Positions 25,009 to 44,946 of a stretch of DNA of 64,000 nt are shown here, one piece after another. The notes under the pieces are model-generated. The model saw nothing but the letters and a program-made list of their open reading frames with translations, made no database searches and was not told where the DNA came from. The DNA is from Anaerolineales bacterium (lineage in GTDB: Bacteria; Chloroflexota; Anaerolineae; Anaerolineales; E44-bin32). The first letter of the stretch is position 1. Each line of letters starts with the position of its first letter. The DNA is taken from positions 141,160 through 205,159 of the forward strand of contig DAOUEL010000078.1 in NCBI GenBank assembly GCA_034430595.1, given 5' to 3'. Made by a program: the position numbers and the translations under genes.

Positions 25009-25350
25009 CTTGGCTCCTGGGGATAGGCGGTCGTGTCATTACAGCATAGCGCGAAACTTTCCCGCGTGCACCCGTGGTCGAAACAATGATGAGCTGAAAG
25101 GGCGGCTAATTTGCATTTGTGTCATGCTTAATCCCTGCGCACAAATCCCACATCATTCATCCTATTCAGAAGGAATGTATGGGTCTATAATTTCCGCCGT
25201 ACCGCATCACGCTCTCCCCGGTGAGGGGAATCCTGATTGCAAAAAGCTGTTTACAGAGCCAGGCCGCGCACTCACTGATCAAGGTGCGTGGCGTGCTGGC
25301 GTGGAATGAACCCGGTCCAAGGCGCTTGGGCTGGCTGCGAGGAGCGCGGA

Positions 25351-26922
25351 ATGAAGCAAAAGAATAAACGAGCACGTATCATCGCCTGGGGGTTAGCGAT
25401 CCCCGTCATCGCCGTCAGCGTGACCAAGGCGATTGTCAGTTTGACTGGACAGCCAGCGCTCGATGATCCGGTCGAAGTCCTGGGCTGGGGATTGACGCTT
25501 CCATTGGCGTTTTCGGTGCTGGCGGCGTTGATCATCGCCCGCCAACCCGGCAACCGGGTCGGATGGCTGATGATGATCATCGGCTTGTCGGGCGGATTGA
25601 GCAACATGAATGACCTTGTGCTGGTGTCTTATACTTATTCACCTCCGGAGCATCTGACCCTGGGCTTGTGGTTGATACTGTACCTGCACAACGGAGGTTG
25701 GGTATTTTCGTTCTTCCCTCTCTTTCTCATCCCGCTTTATTTCCCGACTGGCAATCCCCCCTCGCCGCGCTGGCGCTGGGTCGCTTGGCTCGCACTGGGG
25801 ATGGTGCTGACCTTTGTTGTGCTGGGAGCCTTTTTTGAGAACTTCGAGACCTCGAATTGGACGATCCCCAACCCAATAGGCGTCATCCCGGCTAGTTTCT
25901 GGGAAGGCGGTTTCATGCTTCTCTGGACAGTCGGTCTGCTCGTGGTTGTTGCCGGCTCCGTCGCTTCGCTGTACATGCGTTATTGGGGAGCGGGCAGCGG
26001 TGAACGGCAGCAGATCAAGGTGCTGCTTTTGGCGGGCGTGATGTTCGCAGTCTTTTATTCACTGGTTGCACTCTTCTTCTCAAATGCGGAGGGCGGTTTT
26101 AGCCTCCTGGCCAACTTGCTTTTTTTTCTCACCATTCTGGGCATCCCTGTGGCGATCGCAATTTCCATCTTCCGCTACCGGCTGTGGGACCTGGACGTTG
26201 TGATCAACCGGGCGCTGATCTACGGCCCACTGACGACCCTCATGGCGGGCACATTCGCCATGGTGATCGCGCTGACGACTGAGCTCACGAAAGAGGCGCT
26301 CGGCGACCAGTCGAAGGCGCTTGGGGCGGCGATATCAGCCGTTATCGTGGCGGTTGTCTTTCAACCACTTCGCAGCCGGATTGAAGATTTCGTTGATAAG
26401 CGCTTTTACCCCCAGAAGCTCGACCTGGCATCCGGGTTGGTGGAGGTGATGCCCGAATACTGGAGCTTTCTCGACCGCGAGACGCTGATGGAATTAGCGA
26501 TGGAGCATGTGAGGAGCGTGCTCGGCACCGAGCATGCGGCTTTCTACCTCGCCACCGGCCCGGACCGCTTCCAACTGGCCAGTCAGCTGAACGGTGCCGC
26601 GCGAGAACATCCTATGATCATGCTTTCGAAGAAGCAGCACGAAGAGCTGCAGAAGAAGCGCGTTGTTGCCAGCGAGGGCATGGCTAACCTCGCCGGACAC
26701 GTGCCGCTCTTCATCGACCGCGGGAAATCGAACGAGCTGCTCGGCCTGCTTTCGGTTGGTTCCCGGGCGAGCGGCAAGGGCTATTCAGGGGATGACCTGA
26801 AGGGGCTGGTCGACTTGGGGAACAAGATCGGCCTGGCGCTGAACGCCATCCGCATGGCCGAGAAGCGGAAAGCGTCCGAATCGCCCTTGACGACTCCTAA
26901 CGCTGCCGTCGCACAGTTGTAA
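25351..26922 (+). CDS. Multi-TM sensor-like protein with C-terminal GAF-like domain and no output domain
   Basis: RQPGNRVGW, FPTG...SPRWRW, NPIG, ERQQIK, IFRYRLWDLD, then GAF-like LGLLSVGSR...YSGDDL; ATG 25351 after GAGGAG. Confidence 0.75.
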   Translation: MKQKNKRARIIAWGLAIPVIAVSVTKAIVSLTGQPALDDPVEVLGWGLTLPLAFSVLAALIIARQPGNRVGWLMMIIGLSGGLSNMNDLVLVSYTYSPPEHLTLGLWLILYLHNGGWVFSFFPLFLIPLYFPTGNPPSPRWRWVAWLALGMVLTFVVLGAFFENFETSNWTIPNPIGVIPASFWEGGFMLLWTVGLLVVVAGSVASLYMRYWGAGSGERQQIKVLLLAGVMFAVFYSLVALFFSNAEGGFSLLANLLFFLTILGIPVAIAISIFRYRLWDLDVVINRALIYGPLTTLMAGTFAMVIALTTELTKEALGDQSKALGAAISAVIVAVVFQPLRSRIEDFVDKRFYPQKLDLASGLVEVMPEYWSFLDRETLMELAMEHVRSVLGTEHAAFYLATGPDRFQLASQLNGAAREHPMIMLSKKQHEELQKKRVVASEGMANLAGHVPLFIDRGKSNELLGLLSVGSRASGKGYSGDDLKGLVDLGNKIGLALNAIRMAEKRKASESPLTTPNAAVAQL

Positions 26923-28009: not shown

Positions 28010-31009
28010 TCACGGATTGGAGGCCGGCATCTGGGTGCTCCAGCTGGTCTTCGAGACGCAGGGCAGTCCAACCGTCTGATTATCGGCGCCCAGGGTCAGG
28101 AAATAGGGGCCACTCATGTTAAATGTGGCCTGTGATCCGTAGTAAAGCAAGTGCCACTGGCCTACGTCAAGTTCGGTGTATCCGGCGATGATCGTGCCGG
28201 GCGGCGATTGCAGGTCAGGCGAGAAGCCCGCCGGCGGGTTCCACGGTGAGCGGTCGAGCAGGATCGGGATAGTCATCGATGCGCCCGGATCGAGCGGCGG
28301 GATGTCCAGGCCGACTGCCTCGAAGAGCTGCCCTTCGATGTTCTCCCCGCCGATGGCGTTTGTCGCGTGGTTGTACACCGAGAGACCGCAGCGCTCGATA
28401 TCGGTTTTGGGGATCCCCGCTGTCTCGATCCGCCGGCTGACGCGCACTGTGAGCACGGCCGGCTGGACCGAGGCGAGTGGGTGCGGTTCCCACAGGTTGA
28501 AGGCCGTCTGGCCCGACTGCCCAAAGGGGCCGATGTCGAATGAGTCCGTGCCCGCTTTTAGGTTCTGCTTGATCACCGCCTCGCAGTCCTGGTCGCAGGG
28601 TATGCCCTGGCTGTTGAGATAGTCGGCAGCCTGCTGAGCGGCATGGTTCAGCGCCTGGTCGAGGTACTTCCCAGCGTCGAGGTCGCCCTTGACGGCATCC
28701 TTGACGATGCCCTTGCACAGATCATCGCAGTTGACGCCGTGCTTCTGCAGTTCTTCCTGGGCCAGCTGCAGGCCGTAATCCAGGCCCTCGTTGACCAGCT
28801 TGTCGGGATGCGCCAGCAGATCGAGGCCTTTGCGGATGGAATCCTGACACAGTGGGTCACAGCCGGTCACCTCGGAGATGGCAGTCTGGACCGCGTACTC
28901 GAGGCCCTGGTCCAGCAGTTGATCGAAATTTGGCAGTTCCGGAGGGATGCCAAGATAGGCAAGCCCGATATTGACCCCCAGGTTGATGGCAGCCTTGCAG
29001 GTGTCCTTCGCGTCGCCCGAGAACGCGGAACAGCCGATATTTCCCACGAAGTCGACCACGGCGTTCTTGAGGTTGTTATAGGTCTTGGCCACCCAGCTGA
29101 AGAAGTCCTTGACGAGCCCGCCGAGGGTATCGAGCCCCTTCTGCAGGTGGCAGGCCAGATTCCAGCCGCAGCCGCTGTCGGAAGACTTGCAGGTCACACC
29201 CGGACAGCCGCAGGAAAGAGAACCGGCCGGGAGCAGCGTGGTGCATGTGAGCTCAGGTTCGCTTGGGGAACTGTTAGGGTTGATGCTGTTCAGGATGTCT
29301 TCGAAGCTCTTCGTCCCTTGCTGGCTGCACTGCTGCAGCGGCTTGGAGAGCACCATGCAGGAGGCATAGCTCGGGTCAGCCGGACGGTAGGGCTGGAATC
29401 CAATCACCTGCACGTCATAGAGCGGGCCAGTCTCGGCGTTGACTGGAATCTGCTCCGGAGGCCCATAGCGAACGATCACCGTATTCGATGGTTGGAGCAG
29501 TTTTCCACCCTGGGCGATCGGGATGACACGGATGTAAAAAGTTGTCGGAAGCAGGCTGTTGATGTCCGTCAAGCGTTGGATCTGATTCTGCAGTGATTCA
29601 ATAGCTTGCTGGATAGCATTAAATGGATTGCTTGAAGGTGCCTGCCCTTCGGGGAAATCGATGTACTTCGAAAAATCAACCGAGAATTTTGCCGGAACAA
29701 GTTTGGTTTCCGAGGCTGGAAATGGAAAGCCGGATTTCTTCGTAACGTACTTTGGAGGCGATGTTTTTCCAGTGGCGATGACATCCGGCGTCCAGAACAG
29801 GCCCGATTCAAAGGGCTTGGTTGAAACCTGCCAGATTCCCGCATTGATGCTGCCTTCGAGCGAGGACCAGCGAAAGACCTGGTTATAACCCTGGAAGTAG
29901 CCTTCGATCGGGCTGGGGATCGTCCACTCGCTAACATAGCTGGTCTGGTTACGAATCGTGCCGATAATATCCAGCCGGGTTGTCGTGAGTGTACCCAGAA
30001 AGGCATAGGCCTGGTTCTCACCGAGAACGCCCCCTTGGCGGCCCAGATAAACCAGTTGTCCACCGTTCCAGCCCCAGGCTTCAGCCTCAAAGGGCGTGGG
30101 TTTGGGTAAATTCGTAAGCGCGTCAGGAGGGATGAGGCCGGCCAGGTCGTAGGCACCAGATGTTGGCTGCAGGAATGTGTTCTTGTCGCTCGGGAAGCGC
30201 AGCCATGGCCCGCCGGCAAGCGAGGCGTAGAGGTATAGCTTATCCACGGGTGACTTGGGAATCAGGATTCCATCCTTGATCACGAAACCGGGTGCGAGCG
30301 GCAGGTTCAACTGGGCCAGATTCACCTGCAGGGAGTTTGGCTGGGTGTTGTCAGCCGGCTCCGGCGTGGGCGGAAGCGGCTGCGAAGGCGGAGCCGCTGG
30401 TTGACCATCCTGCGGGCTCACAGGTGCGGAATTCGGAACCGGCACCGGGATACTGATCTCCTGGCCCAGTGCCAGCGAGGCATCAGGATCGAGACCGGGA
30501 TTTGAATCCAGGATTGCCTGCGGGTCGGTTTCGAATGCCTGAGCTAATCCTGCGACGGTCTCGCCGCCATCTGCGGTGAAAGGCAATGGAAACCGTACAT
30601 CCGCCTCTCGGATCGCGGTCAGGGTTAATGGCTCGGATTGTGTGATGTTGCCCTTTGTATCTGTAGCTCGCAGCAGAAATTTGTGCTGGCCCTCGCCCGA
30701 GGGCGTCCACGACCAAAACTCCTGCAGCACAGCTTCGGCCGGAGAATAATCTTTCGCCTCCCAGAGTTGATCATTGACCCATAGCTCGACCCGGGTGAAG
30801 CCAGGTGTTGAAAGACCTTCGCCGGCAATCGCGACGGTGCTGTGCAGTGGAACGGTTGAGCCGTCGGTTGGTTCAGAGAGGCTCAGCACCGAGCGGGTAG
30901 CGGCGTTGAGCTGAGCCACTTGCCAGGGTTTCCAGATCAAAAGGCCAGCTGCCAGGCCTCCGACCAGCACGACTGTGATAAGTAAGACAATCCAACGACG
31001 AGTACTCAT
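28010..31009 (-). CDS. Large surface protein: TM anchor, Ig-like domain, LysM, Pro linker, uncharacterised core with three CxxxC helical repeats
   Basis: N-terminal hydrophobic helix; Ig-like WTPSGEGQHKFLLRATD; LysM GETVAGLAQAFETDPQAILDSNPGL...LGQEISIP; core paralogous to 35324-37807. Confidence 0.85.
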   Translation of the reverse strand: MSTRRWIVLLITVVLVGGLAAGLLIWKPWQVAQLNAATRSVLSLSEPTDGSTVPLHSTVAIAGEGLSTPGFTRVELWVNDQLWEAKDYSPAEAVLQEFWSWTPSGEGQHKFLLRATDTKGNITQSEPLTLTAIREADVRFPLPFTADGGETVAGLAQAFETDPQAILDSNPGLDPDASLALGQEISIPVPVPNSAPVSPQDGQPAAPPSQPLPPTPEPADNTQPNSLQVNLAQLNLPLAPGFVIKDGILIPKSPVDKLYLYASLAGGPWLRFPSDKNTFLQPTSGAYDLAGLIPPDALTNLPKPTPFEAEAWGWNGGQLVYLGRQGGVLGENQAYAFLGTLTTTRLDIIGTIRNQTSYVSEWTIPSPIEGYFQGYNQVFRWSSLEGSINAGIWQVSTKPFESGLFWTPDVIATGKTSPPKYVTKKSGFPFPASETKLVPAKFSVDFSKYIDFPEGQAPSSNPFNAIQQAIESLQNQIQRLTDINSLLPTTFYIRVIPIAQGGKLLQPSNTVIVRYGPPEQIPVNAETGPLYDVQVIGFQPYRPADPSYASCMVLSKPLQQCSQQGTKSFEDILNSINPNSSPSEPELTCTTLLPAGSLSCGCPGVTCKSSDSGCGWNLACHLQKGLDTLGGLVKDFFSWVAKTYNNLKNAVVDFVGNIGCSAFSGDAKDTCKAAINLGVNIGLAYLGIPPELPNFDQLLDQGLEYAVQTAISEVTGCDPLCQDSIRKGLDLLAHPDKLVNEGLDYGLQLAQEELQKHGVNCDDLCKGIVKDAVKGDLDAGKYLDQALNHAAQQAADYLNSQGIPCDQDCEAVIKQNLKAGTDSFDIGPFGQSGQTAFNLWEPHPLASVQPAVLTVRVSRRIETAGIPKTDIERCGLSVYNHATNAIGGENIEGQLFEAVGLDIPPLDPGASMTIPILLDRSPWNPPAGFSPDLQSPPGTIIAGYTELDVGQWHLLYYGSQATFNMSGPYFLTLGADNQTVGLPCVSKTSWSTQMPASNP

Positions 31010-31090
31010 AAGTGTCTCCAGATCCCTGCCTGCAACGAAGGGTCGCTATCTAAACTCGAAAACCGGTAATGAAACCCATCGGCTCGGACA

Positions 31091-31993
31091 TCACCTGATC
31101 ACAGGCACGGTCGGCGTGACGGTCACCAGGATCATCGGCGGCAGAATGGTGATGGCATTGCAGCGCGCAAGCTGCAGGTCGGTGTAGACCGGGCTGCGCA
31201 CGAGTTCACCCTGGTTGGGCTGCAGCGCGAACTGGTAGTGCACGATGCCGCCGTCTCCGCCAAAGCCGCTCGTGCGTGCCAGGCTGTCACCGGTCTTCGT
31301 AATAGCGAAGGCCCCGTTGCCCTGAACGTTCATCGCTTCACCCTGGGACCAGGCAGTTTGCTCGCCGCTGGCCGCGTCCTCCACCCGGTAAAAGAACACC
31401 ACCACCTTTACCCCGCCGGCGGCACTGGCGCTGGCATGGAAGGTGACCTGCGCCGGGTCGCAGCTCGTCCCGCCGAAGTACACCCGCCCGGTGGAGAGCG
31501 GCAGGCCGGCAATACCGCCTGGCAAGGATGTTGAGGTTGGCGTGGGCGATGGGCTGGCGGTCGGCGTAGGGGTTTCTGTGGGACCGGTCGTTGGGGTTGG
31601 CGAGGGTGTGGCGATATCACCAACTGTAACTACGACCTGGGATGGATCGCTCCAGTTGCCATCGCCGTCCTGGGCGCGTACGGCCAATGTGTACCGCCCC
31701 GGCTCGGGCGGATGCCAGGTCCACTTGACGTGTGACAGGCGGTCGCCGGTATCGGCCGGGATTTCAGTCTCGGGCGAGGCACCGTTTACGGTGAACTCGA
31801 GTTGGGCAACCCCGGCCTGATTTGCGCCGTGCGCGATAACCTCCTGCGGGGCAAGCGGGAGCAAGCTGCCGTCGAGCGGCGCATCGATCCATGCCATCGG
31901 TCCGGTTGTGGGTGAATTGGTGCAGCTGGCGAGCAGGAGCAGTAGCCCCGGCAGAATCAAGCGAACTACTGCTGGTCGTGATGTCTTTGCCAT
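31091..31993 (-). CDS. Lipoprotein with Ig-like domain, Thr/Pro linker and C-terminal beta domain
   Basis: Lipobox LASC; WHPPEPGRYTLAVRAQD Ig-like strands; TPSPTPTT linker. Confidence 0.82.
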   Translation of the reverse strand: MAKTSRPAVVRLILPGLLLLLASCTNSPTTGPMAWIDAPLDGSLLPLAPQEVIAHGANQAGVAQLEFTVNGASPETEIPADTGDRLSHVKWTWHPPEPGRYTLAVRAQDGDGNWSDPSQVVVTVGDIATPSPTPTTGPTETPTPTASPSPTPTSTSLPGGIAGLPLSTGRVYFGGTSCDPAQVTFHASASAAGGVKVVVFFYRVEDAASGEQTAWSQGEAMNVQGNGAFAITKTGDSLARTSGFGGDGGIVHYQFALQPNQGELVRSPVYTDLQLARCNAITILPPMILVTVTPTVPVIR

Positions 31994-32316
31994 GAGCGAA
32001 CCATCCTTTGATCGAGGATTGACGTTGGCCGTGACACGAATCCATGGCCGTCACTCAATCTGCATCCTGCGGAATGAGCAATCCGATCGGTGCGCGCCAT
32101 ATCCGCACCGGTATGGCGGAATCCGGGCAATGCGGTTGTCGATGGTTGGGGGATCGATCGGCGGTCCGCGTCGTCCAAGCCTATGCGCGTTGTATACGAT
32201 AAATAAGCCCGACTACGTACGATATCAATAATATATTATGTGACAAAACCCCACTCGTGGCAAGGCGTGAATCCCCGGCGACGATCGCGCCGGTGAGATC
32301 CGGTTGCGAGCCGCGA

Positions 32317-32988
32317 TCAGGGCTGGCTGACCATGAAATTATCAAAAAGCACTTCCGTGACGCCGCTGCCCGAACCTCCAGCGCCGAAACCAACATCACC
32401 GGTAGGGATCTCGAGCTGCGCAGCATAGAGGAACTGAACGCCGTCAAGATAAACGACCATTTCCGTCCCCGTGCAGTCCAGTTCAAAGTGATTCTGAGAC
32501 GGGGCAACTCCACTGGGGAAGTCGTCAACCACGATCACCTGTTCATCTTCAAGGTAGGCGCCAATCGAAAGCATGCCATCGCCGTCGAGTTCGGCGTAGT
32601 AGTAATTTTCATTGTCCTGGTAGCGGCAGATCAGGTAGGCTCCGGCGCTCTCGGAGCCAGAGACACGTTCGGTGTCCACCTCCACCCGCACATCCCCGAA
32701 GCTGTGGCCGGATACTGCGAGCGGAAAGATGTATGGATTTTCATCCTGATCGATGCGGATACGGTATGCCCCTTCGTCATAGCCTCGAAAGTAATAGGTA
32801 TCGTCGATGGGCCAGCCGGAGCCGGGATTGGAAAAATCGTCAAAGAGAAGCACTCCGTCGGAGGAGGTTTTCGCCACCGTGCTCGGTGCTGCCGTATCTT
32901 CCGCAGGAGCTTCGTTTGAAGTTCCACAAGCCGCGCCGGCCAGGATCAATCCGGTCAGGATCAACGCGGGCCAGGATTTTCTCTTCAC
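32317..32988 (-). CDS. Lipoprotein with concanavalin A-like (DUF1080-like) beta-sandwich
   Basis: Lipobox GAAC; FDDFSN, FGDVRVEVD, GDVGFGA, FDNFMV; GTG 32988 chosen from RBS spacing (ATG 32994/33018 are alternatives). Confidence 0.78.
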   Translation of the reverse strand: MKRKSWPALILTGLILAGAACGTSNEAPAEDTAAPSTVAKTSSDGVLLFDDFSNPGSGWPIDDTYYFRGYDEGAYRIRIDQDENPYIFPLAVSGHSFGDVRVEVDTERVSGSESAGAYLICRYQDNENYYYAELDGDGMLSIGAYLEDEQVIVVDDFPSGVAPSQNHFELDCTGTEMVVYLDGVQFLYAAQLEIPTGDVGFGAGGSGSGVTEVLFDNFMVSQP

Positions 32989-33060
32989 GTGCATCCACTC
33001 CTCCATATTCATGTCCATCGGGCACCGGGATGATACCCGACGTGGGGTCGATCAACATTC

Positions 33061-35277
33061 CTAGTGGCGGTTGTATTTAATGGGTTTTGCCAATTGCCCA
33101 CCACCCAGATCGTAGGATAGATAAAGCTCGCCCGCCTTCTCATCACAGGTGTACTGTGCTGCCCCGGTCAGCCCATTTGAGAGGGAGGGTCCCATGCCAC
33201 TTAGCAGGTCACCGTCTCCAGGCACCTCCTGCCCATTGATCAGGATCTTTTGCGTCATGCTGACATTGTCGTCAAGCAGGGAGAAAATGAGGTGGTCGAC
33301 ATTGTCGTTGGCGTATTCGGCCGAACCGTCACCGGTGATGTCGAGCAGCACCTGGGCCAGCACGCCAAACCCAGAGCCGCCGCCGGTTTGATCCAGTTCG
33401 TAGGCCACGAAGTAGTTGTACTCTCCGGTGACGACCGACTGCTGTGTAAACTCCAGGCGCCAGACTCCACCCATGCTGTCGATGCTGAAGAACCCCGGAT
33501 CGGTATTCTTGAAAGGTGCCGCTAGGTACTCGGCGAAGCTGGGCGTATCGATGTCCCACACACCAATCAGGCAGGTATCGCAGGTCGTCTGCGCGGTGGC
33601 CGGCTGGTCGACGGTAATCTCCAGTTTAACCTGGCGGGGGTTGGCAAGAATGGTACCGGTTGCCGTGAAGAGGGCGACATAGTTCGCGCAGCCCGTCTCG
33701 CGATCGACAGCGACCGGAAGCCACTGCGTGGGTGTTGGTAGTGTCCCGATCACCTGCAGCACTTCCGCGTCCGTTTTCGCGAGAGCAATATGGAACCCTT
33801 TTCCAGGCCCGAGCGAGAGCAGGTATCTGCTCAACGAAAAATCTTTCACATCGAGGTCCAGTGGCTGGCTTGCCTTGAACAGGTATGTTTCGTTGTACTG
33901 GATCTCGGTCTTGATTTGCTTCTTGTTTGAATCCACAACTTCCCCGTTAACGAAGGCCTGACCGAAGGCATGCCAGATTTGGTCGATGTTGGTATAACCG
34001 CTCAGTGCTGCAATTTGCTCGGCCGCACCTCCCGATGTGGGCAACAGGGAAATCAAACTCAGGATGGCCGGGATGTCATGATCTGGGCGGTTGTTGAGGT
34101 ATTGAAAGAAGAGGTACGCCTCGTAGCTCATCTCGACGATCGGCTTGTAGCGCGAGTAGGAATTGAAGGTAGACAGCCAGCGGTGCTCCAGGTCTATCGA
34201 TGGATACACGAGATTGCTAAAGAACTCGGCCGAACCTTCCACCCACCAGTCGGATGCTTTGAGGACGACCTTTGGGACGGTGAAGTGTGTGTATTGAAAA
34301 CAGTGAAAGACCTCATGTGCGACGATCTGCTTGAAGGCCTCGGGTGTCTTGCCCAATGAAACGGGATAGAGCGCGATCGTGCAGGGATTTCCAGCCTGTG
34401 CGCCGGCCGAGTCAGCCCAGGTGACGAAATTATTCTTCTTGGGCAAATCGAGAACCGTAAAGACAAAGTTAATCGATTCCTGTGCACCGTAAGCGTTGTA
34501 GTGCTTGACGGCGGTCTGGGCTGCTTCGAAGGCCGCATCCACCCAGGGTTTCTGGGCACCGCCTTGTGATCCCCAATCGAGAGGATAGTAGAGGCGGTAG
34601 GTATTTCCGTTGAAGGAAAAATTTTGATATTGAAAACAGGCAATCGCCTTATCTTTAGGGAAACCGTCGAGAGCGAGGCTCTTGCAGTTTACCAGCAAAG
34701 TTCTGCTTGAAAGCCCGGGAGCGCGGGAAGCAGCCTGCTCAGCGGAAACGCTGTACGCATCGAGTGTCTCGGCGTCGGGGGATAGCGCCTGCAGTAAGCG
34801 CTGCAGTTCGGCAGTTGTCTGTGTATCGCCGCTCTGTTCGATATAACTGCGTACCAGACCCAGGAAACCGGTGGCCTCACCGAAGGTGACCTCGCCGATT
34901 TCCGGAACTGCCTCGGCCTCAAGCGCTCCGGCAAGGTAGCGGGTGAGAGTCAGCAGCCCCTGCTCCTGGCTCCATATTCCCGCAGCGATGTTTTGTTCGA
35001 GTAGCGCCCTGAAATCCGCCGGGAGCTCATTCGGTTCCTGGTAGGGAACCTCGAGCGGTCCTTCCAATGAGGTGGGGACAAGAGCAGAAGTATCAGCTGT
35101 GGATGACGCGGCACCGCCGTCCTGGTCCCCGGACGGACCATCAGAGGCTGCGCCATGCGTGCCTGCAGGGCGATTGCAGCCCGCGGATAGGAGCAGCACG
35201 AGCAGGAATGCTCCAATCATTGGCAGGATACGTTGCGGCGAATTGGTTTTCCACAGCTTTGGGCTGCTACGCTTCAT
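33061..35277 (-). CDS. Lipoprotein zinc metallopeptidase (HEXXH+E, gluzincin-like) with C-terminal beta domain
   Basis: Lipobox SAGC; AHEVFHCFQ followed by WWVEGSAEF; GGAG RBS. Confidence 0.8.
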   Translation of the reverse strand: MKRSSPKLWKTNSPQRILPMIGAFLLVLLLSAGCNRPAGTHGAASDGPSGDQDGGAASSTADTSALVPTSLEGPLEVPYQEPNELPADFRALLEQNIAAGIWSQEQGLLTLTRYLAGALEAEAVPEIGEVTFGEATGFLGLVRSYIEQSGDTQTTAELQRLLQALSPDAETLDAYSVSAEQAASRAPGLSSRTLLVNCKSLALDGFPKDKAIACFQYQNFSFNGNTYRLYYPLDWGSQGGAQKPWVDAAFEAAQTAVKHYNAYGAQESINFVFTVLDLPKKNNFVTWADSAGAQAGNPCTIALYPVSLGKTPEAFKQIVAHEVFHCFQYTHFTVPKVVLKASDWWVEGSAEFFSNLVYPSIDLEHRWLSTFNSYSRYKPIVEMSYEAYLFFQYLNNRPDHDIPAILSLISLLPTSGGAAEQIAALSGYTNIDQIWHAFGQAFVNGEVVDSNKKQIKTEIQYNETYLFKASQPLDLDVKDFSLSRYLLSLGPGKGFHIALAKTDAEVLQVIGTLPTPTQWLPVAVDRETGCANYVALFTATGTILANPRQVKLEITVDQPATAQTTCDTCLIGVWDIDTPSFAEYLAAPFKNTDPGFFSIDSMGGVWRLEFTQQSVVTGEYNYFVAYELDQTGGGSGFGVLAQVLLDITGDGSAEYANDNVDHLIFSLLDDNVSMTQKILINGQEVPGDGDLLSGMGPSLSNGLTGAAQYTCDEKAGELYLSYDLGGGQLAKPIKYNRH

Positions 35278-35323
35278 GGGTTCGTCTCCTTACTCGACAG
35301 TTCGCTCACGATGTGTGGCGGGT

Positions 35324-37807
35324 CTATTGCCCGAAAGACTGGTTCGGGTCACCCAGGATCGAAGCGCTCTTGCTGCAGGGGTTGTAAACCCACAGGTCCA
35401 TCTCGCCGTTCCAGTACCATGTGCTCCACGCGCTCTGTGCGTCGTTGTAGGAGGTCCACGGGTTCCCCCAGTAGTTGTTGATGGTCGGCTTCAGCACGAC
35501 CGGTACGAGCTGCGTTTCGCCCAGTCCCAGCTGGGGCAGCGGCACGTACATCGACTCGTACAGGTAGTACGCATAGTCAGCCTTCATCTTCTGTTTCGTC
35601 GATGAAATCCAGTCGTTGAAGTTCTGCGCGTGCTCGGCCGATACCACGACCGTGGTGTCAATAAAGAGCGTGCCCTTCTGCCCCGGCTGGCCGCTGCAGA
35701 AATCCGCTTCAAGCGGAACCGTGGGATCGCGCGTGACCTTGAGTATCATCGTCGGTGGCTGGTAATCCCCGAACGGATCGGGCTTGACGGGCACCCCGTC
35801 CGGTATCCAGCTTACGGAGCTGGAAAGCGCGTACTGGGCTGCTTCAAGCCCCTGCTGCAGGCCTTGCTTGAGCTGTTTTTCGGCCTCGGCCCGCCAGGCT
35901 GCTTCCGCCTCGCTGACTGCCAAATCAAAAGCCGCATCGGTCAGGAAATCCCCCGGTTTAATTGCGTCGGTGACCTCCGGGGGGATATTGAGCTGCGCTG
36001 CAGCCTGTGAAGCCAGGTACTCCAAGCCTTCGTTCATCAACTGGTCGAAATTCGGGATGCTGGGCGGGATGCCGAGCGCCATCAGGCCGGCATCGAGCAG
36101 CGTGCCCAGACAGGCTTTATTGCAGATCACGTCGGGCACGAAATTCGCCACGATGCTGACGACGGTGTCCTTGAGGTCGTTATAGGCGGTGCTGACCCAG
36201 TTCACCGCGTCGACGACAAAGTCGACCACCGCCTCGTACCAGGATTTGCTCTTCGGTTTGGGCGGGCAAAATTTATCGCCTGCTTTGTACGATGCCGGAA
36301 CGCCGCCGATTTTGACCGTGGTGTCTTTCGTGACGAGGTAGCAGCCCACATGCCCATTTTTGGGGGCGACGATGCCGTGGTAGCCGGCGATCTCAACGAT
36401 AAAAGGTTTGAGCGGCGGCGGCACCGGCGTCGGGCAACCTGGTGCGCTCGGATTCTGCTGGCATTCCTGGCCCTTCTTGATGACGTCGGCTAAGGGGTCC
36501 TCGCCGTACCACTGGATGCGCACCGGGTTGCTGGCCGAGCCTGCGGCCTGCTGGTTGTACACGGGTATGATCCGGAAGTAATAGGTGGTGATGAGCGGCG
36601 GCATGATCTTGCCAGTATCGACGAGGTTAACGAAGTTGCCAGGCTGCTGCGAGGCGCCCGTCATGATCGGCGCCCCGGGGGCCTCCGGCGTCTGCTTGGT
36701 AAAGATCGCTTTCACCCAACCCAGGAGCTGGTTGAACACCTTGCCCGCAGCCTGCCAGGCCTGCTGGAGGAAATTCTGCTTCGCCGGCTGGGATTGTGAG
36801 CCGGCTGGAGGCTCGATGGCCAGGCTCGAGACGTCGACCGTAAAGGTGCAGTTGACGCAGGTAACATCCCATTCAACGACCAATCCCGGCGGCGAGAACA
36901 GGTCGCCCTCCGTCTTGCTCGGAAACGGCATCAGGCTGGCTTGGAGTTTACCGCCCTGGATGTTTGGCAGGACCGTCTCCCACTTGAAGGTTTGATAATT
37001 GCCCTTCGGGCTGGTGGAAAACTCGATATCTGTTGTCCACACTCCTCCTGCAAAGACCTCCCCCATCTGTGCCCCTGGGATCGTCTTCCCCAGCGAGGAA
37101 GCTAGAAGCGAAGCGCCCCCGGGGAGAGCGAAGGTCGTGTGGATTGAGCTTCCCGGTGTCCAGTTGTCGATACCGCTCTCCTCGCCGGTCGGGCAGTCGG
37201 GCGAGTTCAGGTGCAGATCGAGGGCGAAGAGGTCGCCTGGCTTTGCCGGCGGCGGGTCGAAGACAAACAATCCGGATGCGCCGCCCGGCTGTACCGGCAC
37301 CCGGATCGATTCGCCCGAGGCCTGAATGTTCCTATAGATTCGCCGGAAGGTAAGCTTGACCTCCTCCGCTGGTGGATCGCAGCCGAGGATGGTAAGCGTA
37401 TTCGTACCACTATAGGGGACGACATCGACTGGCGCTTCGCTTGTTCCGGTCGCTGTCGGCGTCGGTGTGGGCGTCGCCAGACTCGAGGCCAGTGTGGCGG
37501 TAGGCGTATCCCTGCGCGGAGGTGGAGGGCTGGTCGGCGTATAGCGCGGGGGCAGCGTTGGTGTTGGGGTGGGCTGGCGGCCGATCGGCGTCGACGTCGG
37601 GATTTCACGCTGTGCCGGCCTGGCGAAGCTGACTTGACCATCCTCACTGATCACACCCGAGGCTGGCGAGCTCTCTCTAGGGGTTATGCTTCCAGCCGAG
37701 ACGGTCCCGACCGGCAAGAACGAGGTGGCGAGCACCGCGGCCAGCAGAATCAGATGTATGCCAACTAAGCGCACCCGCTGTTTCGGCCCTTTTTTTTGCT
37801 TTAACAT
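35324..37807 (-). CDS. Large secreted protein, paralog of 28010-31009 (signal peptide, Pro/Thr linker, uncharacterised core)
   Basis: ATG 37807 with GGAGGA RBS; signal peptide ending TVSA; shared blocks YYFRIIP, SNPV, NWVSTAYNDLK, LGIPPSIPNFDQL. Confidence 0.85.
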   Translation of the reverse strand: MLKQKKGPKQRVRLVGIHLILLAAVLATSFLPVGTVSAGSITPRESSPASGVISEDGQVSFARPAQREIPTSTPIGRQPTPTPTLPPRYTPTSPPPPRRDTPTATLASSLATPTPTPTATGTSEAPVDVVPYSGTNTLTILGCDPPAEEVKLTFRRIYRNIQASGESIRVPVQPGGASGLFVFDPPPAKPGDLFALDLHLNSPDCPTGEESGIDNWTPGSSIHTTFALPGGASLLASSLGKTIPGAQMGEVFAGGVWTTDIEFSTSPKGNYQTFKWETVLPNIQGGKLQASLMPFPSKTEGDLFSPPGLVVEWDVTCVNCTFTVDVSSLAIEPPAGSQSQPAKQNFLQQAWQAAGKVFNQLLGWVKAIFTKQTPEAPGAPIMTGASQQPGNFVNLVDTGKIMPPLITTYYFRIIPVYNQQAAGSASNPVRIQWYGEDPLADVIKKGQECQQNPSAPGCPTPVPPPLKPFIVEIAGYHGIVAPKNGHVGCYLVTKDTTVKIGGVPASYKAGDKFCPPKPKSKSWYEAVVDFVVDAVNWVSTAYNDLKDTVVSIVANFVPDVICNKACLGTLLDAGLMALGIPPSIPNFDQLMNEGLEYLASQAAAQLNIPPEVTDAIKPGDFLTDAAFDLAVSEAEAAWRAEAEKQLKQGLQQGLEAAQYALSSSVSWIPDGVPVKPDPFGDYQPPTMILKVTRDPTVPLEADFCSGQPGQKGTLFIDTTVVVSAEHAQNFNDWISSTKQKMKADYAYYLYESMYVPLPQLGLGETQLVPVVLKPTINNYWGNPWTSYNDAQSAWSTWYWNGEMDLWVYNPCSKSASILGDPNQSFGQ

Positions 37808-37884: not shown

Positions 37885-38532
37885 CTACGGCATGTGGGGA
37901 AGCGCCAGGCGGGCGATTTCCTGAGTCATGCTGAACGCCTGGTCCTGCTGATCCTCCGGGTGCCATGTGACGACCTGGAAGACCTGGTCCCCGACCCGTA
38001 CCCGCAGCAGCCCGGACATAAAGACTGCCTCGTCCCCTAGCCCGGCGACGGGGGTGGGAACCACCTCAAACATCGAAGCGCTGCTTTCGTTATCGGCCTT
38101 GAACTGGTCAGCCGTTTCATTTGTTACTTGCAGGATGATCATCTTGCCGCCAGACTGGCTGGTGAGCATACAGCTCCGGTAGGGGCCGATGCTCTCGGGC
38201 GCGGCATCCGTCGCCATAGGTTCCTCAAAGAAGCTTTCAACCTCGGCCTGGGTGAGCATTTCGCAGGGGTTGAAACCGGCCAGGATGTCATTTCCCCCGC
38301 CCGCAGGTGCTGGCGCATTGTTCTCGCTTTCCTGGGATGGTGGCAGCGCGCTTTCCGAGGCCGCAGGCGAGCTAGAGTTCTCATTGGATGGAGCCGCGGG
38401 GGCTTCTTCTTTCCCGCCGCAGGCGGAGAGCAGCGCCAGCATTAAAACCATGGCCGGGATTTGAAGCCGTAATCCGTGCCGGGAGTGGGAATCCTTCCAG
38501 AAGATAACAGGGGAATATTCGATTTTCGACAT
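37885..38532 (-). CDS. Lipoprotein, DUF3558-like
   Basis: Lipobox LSAC; NPCEMLTQAEV, SC, VAGLGDEAV pattern; ATG 38532 with AAGGAG. Confidence 0.7.
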   Translation of the reverse strand: MSKIEYSPVIFWKDSHSRHGLRLQIPAMVLMLALLSACGGKEEAPAAPSNENSSSPAASESALPPSQESENNAPAPAGGGNDILAGFNPCEMLTQAEVESFFEEPMATDAAPESIGPYRSCMLTSQSGGKMIILQVTNETADQFKADNESSASMFEVVPTPVAGLGDEAVFMSGLLRVRVGDQVFQVVTWHPEDQQDQAFSMTQEIARLALPHMP

Positions 38533-38648
38533 CGGTTGACTCCTTGTCTGTGTTTGTTTGTTTTGTTTTCTCTGTTGCAGCAGCCGACGTATGGAGGGGG
38601 CTCTGGGTGGTCGCATACGGCAGGCGTGGAAAACCAGTCCTCCCTCGA

Positions 38649-39642: not shown

Positions 39643-39672
39643 TTGCCAAGATTGACGCCATAGCTTTATAAT
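39643..39672 (+). promoter_or_regulatory. Sigma70-like promoter for the XRE-NTPase-TPR regulator
   Basis: TTGCCA-N18-TATAAT in an AT-richer stretch about 120 bp upstream of the start. Confidence 0.5.
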
Positions 39673-43722: not shown

Positions 43723-44946
43723 CTAGAGGGGCGCATTCATTTTCTGCCTGTCCGGGTCTTCGGGCCGATAACGGGCTCTGGCCGGGCTGACGCTGAGCAG
43801 CATGATGGCCGTGATCAGAATCGCTGATGTCAGACACCACGCGCAGCTCGCTCCCAGCACAAACGGTTCGAGGAAGGTCAGGTAAAGCGAGAATAAAGTC
43901 CCCAGCACGCTGGCTGCAAATACGCCAAGCACCGCCGGACGGGCTGCTGCCGGTTGAGCATAGCGGGCAGTTAACCATCCGATAAGAATGACCGCGTATC
44001 CAGCCACGCCGAGGAATCCGTTAGGGATGCCCAACAACAGCCCCGAGTACTCACTCCGGGCGACGGTGTTGCAGTCGCCGACCGGACCACAGGCGGCATC
44101 GTTCCCCGAGACCGCAATATACGCCAGATAGCCGGCGACCACGATCCCTGCAATGGCCAAGGGCGGGATCCAGATCGAGACCGGCTCTGGCCGGCGGGGG
44201 GCGAAGCGCCCGCTCCAGCGCAGGCCGACGGCAAGCACGCTGAGCAGCATGCCGACCAGAACGACAATGGCAATCGAATTGCCGGCAGGGTCGAGCATAA
44301 TGCGCTCACCAAGAGGCAGTTCGGCAGGATTTCGATCCAACGCCCCCGGAAGTGCTGCCGGCTCCTGCGTGGGTGCTGCGCTGGTCGCGCCAGTTGCCTC
44401 TGTCGGTGTGGGTGCTTCCGGAACTTCCTGGCCGGGGAACGGCTGCAAGGCCTCGATATATGCTGCCAACCCGGGGATATCCGGCCAATTGATTCCACCG
44501 CTGCCCAGGGCTTGCTCGGCAATCAGCGGCAGCTGCTCGGGGATATCGACGGACCCGGTAAGAATCGTGTCCTCGATGACGAGCAGAGGAACGACCCAGT
44601 TTTCCTGCGGGATTGAGTAGCGTTCGATCGCCGCAGCATAAAGTGCGTTCCCGAGTTCGCTGGCGGTGTCGACGTAAAGAACCTGGAGTGCGTTGCCCAG
44701 CAACGCAACCAGTGGAGGCGTATCCTCGCTGGTCGGATCGTAATCCTCGCCGTAGAAGTCCCAGGTCACGCTGCTGTTAAATTGCTGCGAGATCTGGGGC
44801 ATGTAGGTCGTGATGACCAGTTGACAGTGCGGGCATGTGGGGGAGTAGAACAAAACCGCTCGAACAACGTCGGTCTGGGCCGCGACCGGGGTGCCGGGCG
44901 CGAGCATGATCACCAGGGTCAGAATTGTGAACGCAATGCGTTTCAT
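43723..44946 (-). CDS. Thioredoxin-like domain fused to vitamin K epoxide reductase (VKOR), disulfide-formation protein
   Basis: Signal peptide, CPHC motif; CGPVGDCNTVARSEY and CAWC VKOR cysteines. Confidence 0.85.
   Translation of the reverse strand: MKRIAFTILTLVIMLAPGTPVAAQTDVVRAVLFYSPTCPHCQLVITTYMPQISQQFNSSVTWDFYGEDYDPTSEDTPPLVALLGNALQVLYVDTASELGNALYAAAIERYSIPQENWVVPLLVIEDTILTGSVDIPEQLPLIAEQALGSGGINWPDIPGLAAYIEALQPFPGQEVPEAPTPTEATGATSAAPTQEPAALPGALDRNPAELPLGERIMLDPAGNSIAIVVLVGMLLSVLAVGLRWSGRFAPRRPEPVSIWIPPLAIAGIVVAGYLAYIAVSGNDAACGPVGDCNTVARSEYSGLLLGIPNGFLGVAGYAVILIGWLTARYAQPAAARPAVLGVFAASVLGTLFSLYLTFLEPFVLGASCAWCLTSAILITAIMLLSVSPARARYRPEDPDRQKMNAPL

Follow-up and report, generated by a model that had tools for sequence, protein, structure and literature searches.

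Two distant paralogs from an Anaerolineales bacterium belong to a widespread, unnamed family of large, acidic, exported proteins with interchangeable N-terminal anchors

The locus considered here raises the question of what two large exported proteins, whose common core matches no named domain, do for the Anaerolineales bacterium that encodes them. They are the products of gene A and gene B, which lie in a stretch of 64,000 nucleotides (contig DAOUEL010000078.1 of GenBank assembly GCA_034430595.1, positions 141,160 to 205,159 of the forward strand). We call this whole stretch the window and number it from its first letter; its features are collected in Table 1. We propose that A and B belong to an unnamed, widespread family of large, acidic, surface-displayed proteins in which the core is a non-enzymatic structural or binding scaffold, possibly S-layer-like, and we put the probability of this reading at about 0.5.

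The original prediction described A and B as paralogs that share an unrecognised core, recognisable from six collinear sequence blocks, and that differ in their N-terminal targeting modules. Both open reading frames (ORFs) were found where it had placed them on the minus strand, and public gene calls agree with products of 999 (A) and 827 (B) residues. Gene A starts at ATG 31009, with GGAG 8 nt upstream. The ORF of gene B could open at 37966; the ATG at 37807 is preferred because it is preceded by GGAGG at 7 nt, does not run into the upstream gene and agrees with the 827-residue public gene call P0019, which is identical to B across a 560-residue query. A BLASTP comparison of A with B gave one significant high-scoring segment pair (134 residues, 35% identity, E 3e-14), which spans the NWVSTAYNDLK and LGIPPSIPNFDQL blocks; the remaining blocks are too weak for pairwise BLAST and become significant with profiles. 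A hidden Markov model (HMM) built from 18 A-type homologs with identities down to 25%, B having been left out, matched B in two collinear segments. Model positions 379-529 correspond to B 268-435 (E 5.5e-14) and hold the FKWET and YYFRIIP..SNPV blocks, and positions 626-859 correspond to B 514-775 (E 1.1e-30) and hold the other four. The reciprocal B-type HMM matched A 357-714 (E 2.7e-39) and A 736-969 (E 2.5e-12), and an hhalign comparison of the two family profiles returned a probability of 100% (E 6e-56, 453 columns, about 22% identity). All six blocks, in short, align significantly by HMM, reciprocal HMM and hhalign, and the resulting core extents are close to those first estimated. Just upstream of the core, homology between A 240-355 and B 125-254 is unsupported by the profile tests, though MAFFT aligns both segments. 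Judged from their sequences, A and B are distant, true paralogs that stem from an ancient duplication; since they are only about 22% identical and each type has its own orthologs, a recent swap in this genome does not account for them. The window contains these two copies of the family and no third.

To what, then, is this core related? Scans of A and B against Pfam, NCBIfam, PADLOC and PHROGs left it unmatched, and the Pfam and NCBIfam copies used revealed no catalytic domain in either protein. The family profile, run against all PDB sequences, found only a low-complexity linker match (8zvk) and noise, tblastn searches of plasmid and phage collections gave no match, and we found nothing in the literature on the core family. 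The CARDB domain (PF07705) matches neither A nor B, and a Pfam scan places no SLH domain in either. Family members are named 'hypothetical protein' at their source, with the exception of one A-type 'LysM repeat protein'. The core is thus without a named domain, as had been claimed, and the search of protein space with its HMM returned no characterised family. This unnamed core is large, phylogenetically broad and without a detectable solved structural relative.

The breadth of the family became apparent when 1.84 billion representative proteins, clustered at 50% identity, were searched with a HMMER profile: 2145 clusters match at E<=1e-3, of which 1069 remain at E<=1e-10 and 595 at E<=1e-30. 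What these proteins share most widely is a helical bundle followed by a C-terminal sandwich. With one genome taken per GTDB species, relatives are encoded at 72 loci. Full-length matches come from Chloroflexota (Anaerolineales and Dehalococcoidia), and the core is found in Bacillota/Clostridia, Caldisericota, Patescibacteria and Coprothermobacterota as well; the hosts are mainly lineages usually regarded as single-membrane (monoderm). Proteins from Bacillota and Caldisericota match the core HMM with E values of 1e-40 to 1e-77 and consist of a signal peptide, SLH domains (in those scanned), one or two sandwich modules, the helical bundle and the C-terminal sandwich. They carry the motifs W-Q-V-S..P-F and Y-Y-V-R in the sandwiches and G-I-P-P-S-L-P-N-F in the bundle. 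All genome matches are to uncultured organisms, represented by metagenome-assembled genomes or Candidatus strains, and a GTDB scan seeded by the SLH-type alignment, in which the same peptide pattern was reused, likewise found no cultured organism. Several loci (L016, L026, L031, L038, L039, L042/L047 and L075) sit in bins assigned to Phycisphaerales, Lysobacteraceae, Devosiaceae, Methanotrichaceae, Nitrospiraceae and Woeseiaceae. Where such odd-phylum bins involve short contigs, mis-binning is likely; where the contigs measure 50-360 kb, real transfer may have occurred.

We modelled the core of B with AlphaFold2. The first model (B 125-827, from a 55-sequence alignment) has a predicted local distance difference test score (pLDDT) of 78.4 and a predicted template-modelling score (pTM) of 0.52. 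It comprises two beta-sandwiches (a low-confidence insert breaks up the second), followed by a small beta domain, a helical stretch and a C-terminal sandwich. The second (B 504-827, 101 sequences; pLDDT 85.9, pTM 0.77) shows a five-helix bundle packed on a beta-sandwich that bears two inserted helices. The bundle helices occupy model residues 20-51, 61-74, 84-102, 107-111 and 121-161, two of them being long (32 and 41 residues). Across the family, the core is accordingly described as one or two Ig-like sandwich modules with W-Q-V-S..P-F and Y-Y-x-R-x-x-P motifs, a small beta domain, the five-helix bundle and the C-terminal beta-sandwich, and the loop between helix 2 and helix 3 has the consensus G-x-P-P-x-x-P-x-F.

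Foldseek comparisons of these predicted structures gave nothing significant in PDB or BFVD. For the whole core of B, the best PDB match (E 1.1e-3, TM-score 0.12-0.13) is non-significant, and the neighbours (complement macroglobulin (MG) domains, pilins and antibodies) are generically Ig-like. A relationship to the MG domains of alpha-2-macroglobulin and complement was considered and dropped on these values, the model having no thioester-type domain. The helical-plus-sandwich module reached at best E 0.048 in PDB and 0.069 in BFVD, neither of them significant, and the C-terminal sandwich has Ig-like or arrestin-like neighbours that are also non-significant. On the predicted models, the sandwiches are generically Ig-like and the bundle-plus-sandwich unit has no recognisable solved neighbour.

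In the 101-sequence alignment, G579, P581, P582 and P585 (B numbering) in the helix 2/3 loop are 100% conserved, and the other positions conserved to at least 75% are for the most part Gly, Pro, Cys, Trp, Tyr and Leu, together with S506, K546, N586 and R693. The same alignment contains no conserved Asp/Glu/His cluster such as might be expected of a hydrolase, and the SLH-type alignment shows the same conservation pattern. It is this pattern, together with the predicted architecture, that suggests a scaffold or binding protein rather than an enzyme. The proteins are acidic, with isoelectric points of 4.6-5.0 for A and B and a family median of 4.67.

The N-termini of A and B differ in the manner originally described, A having a membrane anchor, an Ig-like domain and LysM, and B a Sec signal and a Pro/Thr linker. 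The hydrophobic segment of A is kept in A-type homologs and is probably an uncleaved signal anchor or transmembrane helix. Behind it, the Ig-like segment scores 18.3 bits against Big_7 (PF17957), under the cut-off of 24.1, which the corresponding positions of relatives do reach. The LysM domain passes the Pfam gathering score (24.9 versus 20.9 bits) and is a bona fide member that lies between the membrane anchor and the core. LysM is likewise precomputed for many A-type homologs, and a Pro-rich linker follows it in A. LysM is a module that binds peptidoglycan and chitin (N-acetylglucosamine), and SLH repeats bind cell-wall polymers. The signal peptide of B, with a basic n-region and a hydrophobic stretch ahead of VSA/GS, is probably cleaved, and signal peptides of typical form, with VSA/Q or AxA/Q at their end, are found in other B-type members. 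B carries no anchor of its own; as far as its sequence indicates, it may be released, or it may be retained by the small membrane protein encoded just upstream.

This exchange of N-terminal modules recurs throughout the family. A Pfam scan of 50 diverse members found Big_7 in 19 (best E 1.2e-7), LysM in 16, and Cu_amine_oxidN1, F5_F8_type_C (discoidin), CARDB and BON in one case each; the sole CARDB match of the family is in P0065, which has about 360 extra residues ahead of its main core match. N-terminal SLH domains were present in six of nine long members scanned (about 1000-1150 residues), mostly from Bacillota, and also in a Cryosericum protein; one Bacillota locus has Cu_amine_oxidN1. 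Among 157 roughly full-length members, 80 have an Ig/LysM N-terminus and most others a plain Sec signal peptide; in Chloroflexota the N-terminus is either the transmembrane-Ig-LysM arrangement or a signal peptide alone. Swapped N-terminal modules are therefore a property of the family as a whole, and the modules identified each bind wall, membrane or glycan. That one functional region can be re-anchored by SLH or LysM is a principle already well known.

Table 1. Features of genes A and B and of the surrounding gene row in the window
Feature	Position	Strand	Evidence or remark
Gene A, 999 aa, A-type	28010..31009	minus	Transmembrane anchor, Ig-like domain, LysM, Pro-rich linker and core
N-terminal hydrophobic segment, A 6-26	30932..30994	minus	WIVLLITVVLVGGLAAGLLIW after MSTRR; 21 residues
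Ig-like (Big_7-like) domain, A 42-93	30731..30886	minus	Pfam Big_7, E 0.0038
LysM domain, A 149-188	30446..30565	minus	Pfam PF01476, E 2e-5
Core shared with B, A 356-970	28100..29944	minus	B-type HMM and hhalign
Invariant loop G-I-P-P-E-L-P-N-F, A G687-F695	28925..28951	minus	G687, P689 and P693 invariant in the A-type alignment
Gene B, 827 aa, B-type	35324..37807	minus	Signal peptide, Pro/Thr linker and core
Sec-type signal peptide, B 1-38	37694..37807	minus	Predicted cleavage VSA/GS, residues 36-40; read from sequence
Pro/Thr-rich low-complexity linker, B 39-124	37436..37693	minus	Sequence; about 85 residues
Core shared with A, B 255-810	35378..37045	minus	A-type HMM and hhalign
Predicted five-helix bundle, B 523-664	35816..36241	minus	AlphaFold2 model md9327dbb0adf (second model)
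Invariant loop G-I-P-P-S-I-P-N-F, B G579-F587	36047..36073	minus	Helix 2/helix 3 loop, non-helical in the model
Predicted C-terminal beta-sandwich with two inserted helices, B 674-820	35348..35788	minus	AlphaFold2 model
Big_7 lipoprotein, 300 aa, lipobox LLASC	31091..31993	minus	Pfam Big_7, E 1.1e-6
Promoter-like site TTGCCA-17-CATAAT	32235..32263	minus	10/12 consensus match only
Small lipoprotein, 233 aa, lipobox LAGAAC	32317..33018	minus	Translation
HExxH (HEVFH) putative zinc-metalloprotease lipoprotein, 738 aa	33061..35277	minus	Between B and A
DUF3558 lipoprotein, 243 aa, lipobox LLSAC	37885..38616	minus	Pfam DUF3558, E 3.6e-11; directly upstream of B
DUF1080 (3-keto-disaccharide-hydrolase-like), lectin-fold, 239 aa	38649..39368	minus	Pfam PF06439, E 1.3e-9; heads the gene row
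HTH, NB-ARC/AAA and TPR regulator (MalT/AfsR-like, STAND-type), 946 aa	39790..42630	plus	Pfam; divergent from the row
VKOR protein, 407 aa, VKOR domain C-terminal	43723-44946	minus	Syntenic with L001

In the window, A and B belong to a minus-strand row of genes for exported proteins with intergenic gaps of 32-81 nt, the sole exception being a gap of 323 nt before the Big_7 gene, and it is within this gap, ahead of the pair formed by the Big_7 gene and gene A, that the promoter-like site at 32235..32263 lies. The Big_7 lipoprotein is composed of its lipobox, a Big_7 Ig domain, a Pro/Thr linker and a C-terminal domain. The HExxH lipoprotein matches NCBIfam MXAN_6640_HExxH (E 9.4e-8) and, weakly, Pfam DUF6055, both under cut-off; a flagellinolysin match is also weak and sub-threshold, and the long C-terminal region has no family match. 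The 233-residue lipoprotein has no match in Pfam or NCBIfam. The divergent STAND-type regulator, near which a consensus scan placed an 11/12 promoter-like site at 39643-39672, may be tied to this row of secreted-protein genes. Just past the 3' end of gene A, a plus-strand gene (25288-26922) encodes a 544-residue, weakly PrsK-like protein; its match to the PEP-CTERM system histidine kinase PrsK (E 1.3e-8) is far under cut-off and is accompanied by a weak GAF match.

Parts of this row recur in relatives, where the family is chromosomal and syntenic among close relatives. At L003 the order of B-type, HExxH, Big_7 and A-type genes is that of the window; the gene for the 233-residue lipoprotein is missing from this otherwise collinear locus, which has only about 280 nt in its place. 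At L001 the B-type gene lies between DUF3558 and DUF1080 genes, beside a TPR regulator (TPR_MalT) in the position of the window's STAND-type regulator, and a fragmented A-type gene follows about 6 kb downstream. This A-type gene (L001 18158-20773, on a contig shared with L007) consists of two ORFs, one of 261 residues with a faint LysM and one of 583 residues with the core, a split that a frameshift, decay into a pseudogene or an assembly error could explain. Genes are divided in a similar way at L008, L036 (486 + 94 + 499 residues) and L072. At L002, the 2.4 kb directly upstream of the A-type gene P0009 (7616-10001) are without a called gene.

Clustering of neighbours over 78 loci identified two recurrent partners. 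A Big_7-like protein of about 300 residues is encoded near a family gene on the same strand at 12 loci, mostly adjacent to it and a few kb off in four. Ahead of B-type genes there is usually a gene for a small membrane-anchored protein. One such protein of about 240 residues is encoded immediately upstream at seven loci, its stop codon often overlapping the start codon of the B-type gene, and a protein of the DUF3558 type takes this position at four loci (L001, L007 and L008 among the relatives), with two further weak matches (L028 and L032). The HExxH gene is kept solely among close relatives. Judged by consensus scans only, the SLH-type genes of three Bacillota loci look monocistronic: they have promoter-like sites of their own and are flanked by terminators. 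Directly after the SLH-type gene in Caldisericota (L043, L056, L058 and L060), a 420-510-residue protein (cluster c13) is encoded, possibly a partner specific to this lineage; at its C-terminus, the copy in L060 matches DUF2325 weakly.

If A and B are indeed surface-displayed scaffold proteins, the interchangeable N-terminal module would set how the core is held at the surface. The relatives from Bacillota and Caldisericota would be held through SLH on cell-wall polymers, and A-type proteins, including A, through a membrane anchor and the peptidoglycan-binding LysM. B-type proteins, including B, have a signal peptide only, and the small membrane-anchored protein from the preceding gene might keep them at the surface. 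The Pro-rich loop on the helical bundle could be a protein-protein contact, serving either self-association within a surface layer or the docking of the adjacent Ig-like lipoprotein. In its most specific version, this proposal makes the family an S-layer-like or S-layer-associated envelope protein, a likeness suggested by the layout of an SLH anchor plus sandwiches, the size, the acidity and the apparently monocistronic genes. SLH-anchored S-layer proteins such as Sap and EA1 of Bacillus anthracis and SbsB of Geobacillus are similarly large (800-1100 residues), acidic and exported, and have an N-terminal wall anchor followed by a chain of beta-sandwiches, a layout that the Bacillota and Caldisericota relatives match with SLH. 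They differ from the present family in that the latter is Cys-rich and has a five-helix bundle with an invariant Pro-rich loop, and in that A and B are without SLH.

Several observations weigh against the scaffold proposal or its S-layer-like form. Solved S-layer proteins show no likeness to the family, either in sequence (PDB profile search) or in fold (Foldseek). The Cys content is about 1.6% across the family, with 18 cysteines in A and 12 in B; to our knowledge, classic S-layer proteins contain almost no cysteine. This content fits the presence of a VKOR gene in the window and, at L002, of a DsbA gene close to the A-type gene, as would be expected of disulfide-bonded exported proteins. The two types of upstream partner are not demonstrably homologous (hhalign probability 0.4%). 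SLH and LysM anchor many enzymes too, so the anchors by themselves are no sign of a structural role, and Ser506 and Lys546 are about 90% conserved, which makes an unusual catalytic dyad conceivable. Finally, the placement of B in a row with a putative metalloprotease and lectin-fold lipoproteins also suits a role in nutrient capture or substrate binding. A bolder version of the scaffold proposal would make the core a new, self-assembling fold family that supplies many uncultured Chloroflexota, Caldisericota, Clostridia and Patescibacteria with the chief building block of their S-layer or sheath, with the loop as a lattice contact and the anchors as one module refitted to different wall chemistries; we regard this as doubtful.

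The main rival takes up the last of these points: the core could be an adhesin or substrate-capture scaffold that forms no lattice and hands bound particles, polymers or cells to co-encoded enzymes, such as the HExxH protease. Chains of Ig-like sandwiches are typical of adhesins, discoidin or CARDB fusions occur occasionally, and the row of B stands next to the STAND-type regulator. However, the protease and lectin neighbours are kept in close relatives only (four loci), whereas the core is conserved across phyla without such neighbours, and it contains no recognisable ligand-binding motif; we hold this explanation possible, if on balance unlikely. The Ig-like chains closest in fold among the Foldseek neighbours (MG domains, Gram-positive pilins such as SpaD, the arrestin/TXNIP N-lobe, the C-terminal domain of TcpF and archaeal FlaF) share the sandwich with the core, but all of these matches are non-significant, and the core shows neither a thioester domain nor motifs of pilins or sortases.

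Less probable still is that the core represents a new enzyme, active on the cell wall or degrading polymers, which LysM or SLH would bring to the wall or a glycan substrate, A being the tethered and B the soluble isoform. Wall hydrolases and glycosidases are often borne on LysM and SLH, one relative has a discoidin (F5/8 type C) carbohydrate-binding module, the DUF1080 lectin-fold and HExxH protease genes are neighbours, and Ser506 and Lys546 are conserved to about 90%. Yet the searches and alignments described above yielded neither a catalytic Pfam or NCBIfam domain nor an Asp/Glu/His constellation, the invariant residues are Gly and Pro, and the predicted architecture of Ig-like sandwiches and a coiled helical bundle has no cleft-forming, enzyme-like PDB neighbour. 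Compared with LysM-anchored surface proteins (PF01476), A shares the LysM domain, which acts as an anchor only; the rest of A bears no relation to the domains, hydrolase or intimin-type, found with LysM as a rule.

The suggestion in the original prediction that the core is an effector module, or toxin, delivered to other cells in a released (B) and a tethered, glycan-binding (A) form found no support and is very improbable: both proteins are exported, they are large and modular as polymorphic toxins and contact-dependent effectors are, and the long amphipathic bundle helices resemble, in appearance only, those of some alpha-pore-forming toxins, but polymorphic toxins combine a conserved N-terminus with a variable C-terminal toxin and an immunity gene, whereas here the C-terminus is conserved and the N-terminal anchor variable, no catalytic set is evident, the conserved neighbours are Ig-like or lipoprotein partners and not small immunity-like proteins, toxin, defence and phage libraries, plasmids and phages gave no match, Foldseek found no pore-forming toxin, and the family is chromosomal and syntenic in close relatives.

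Little is understood of the envelopes of Chloroflexota, Caldisericota and candidate phyla, including most of their major surface proteins, and the present family is clearly exported and anchored to wall or membrane. The definition of the family stands even if the core proves to be an enzyme or an adhesin, and naming it would annotate thousands of 'hypothetical' proteins of 800-1100 residues. For these lineages, the family provides a concrete candidate for envelope or S-layer components, and, as an example from nature, it shows cleanly how one core is re-anchored by SLH, LysM or partner lipoproteins.

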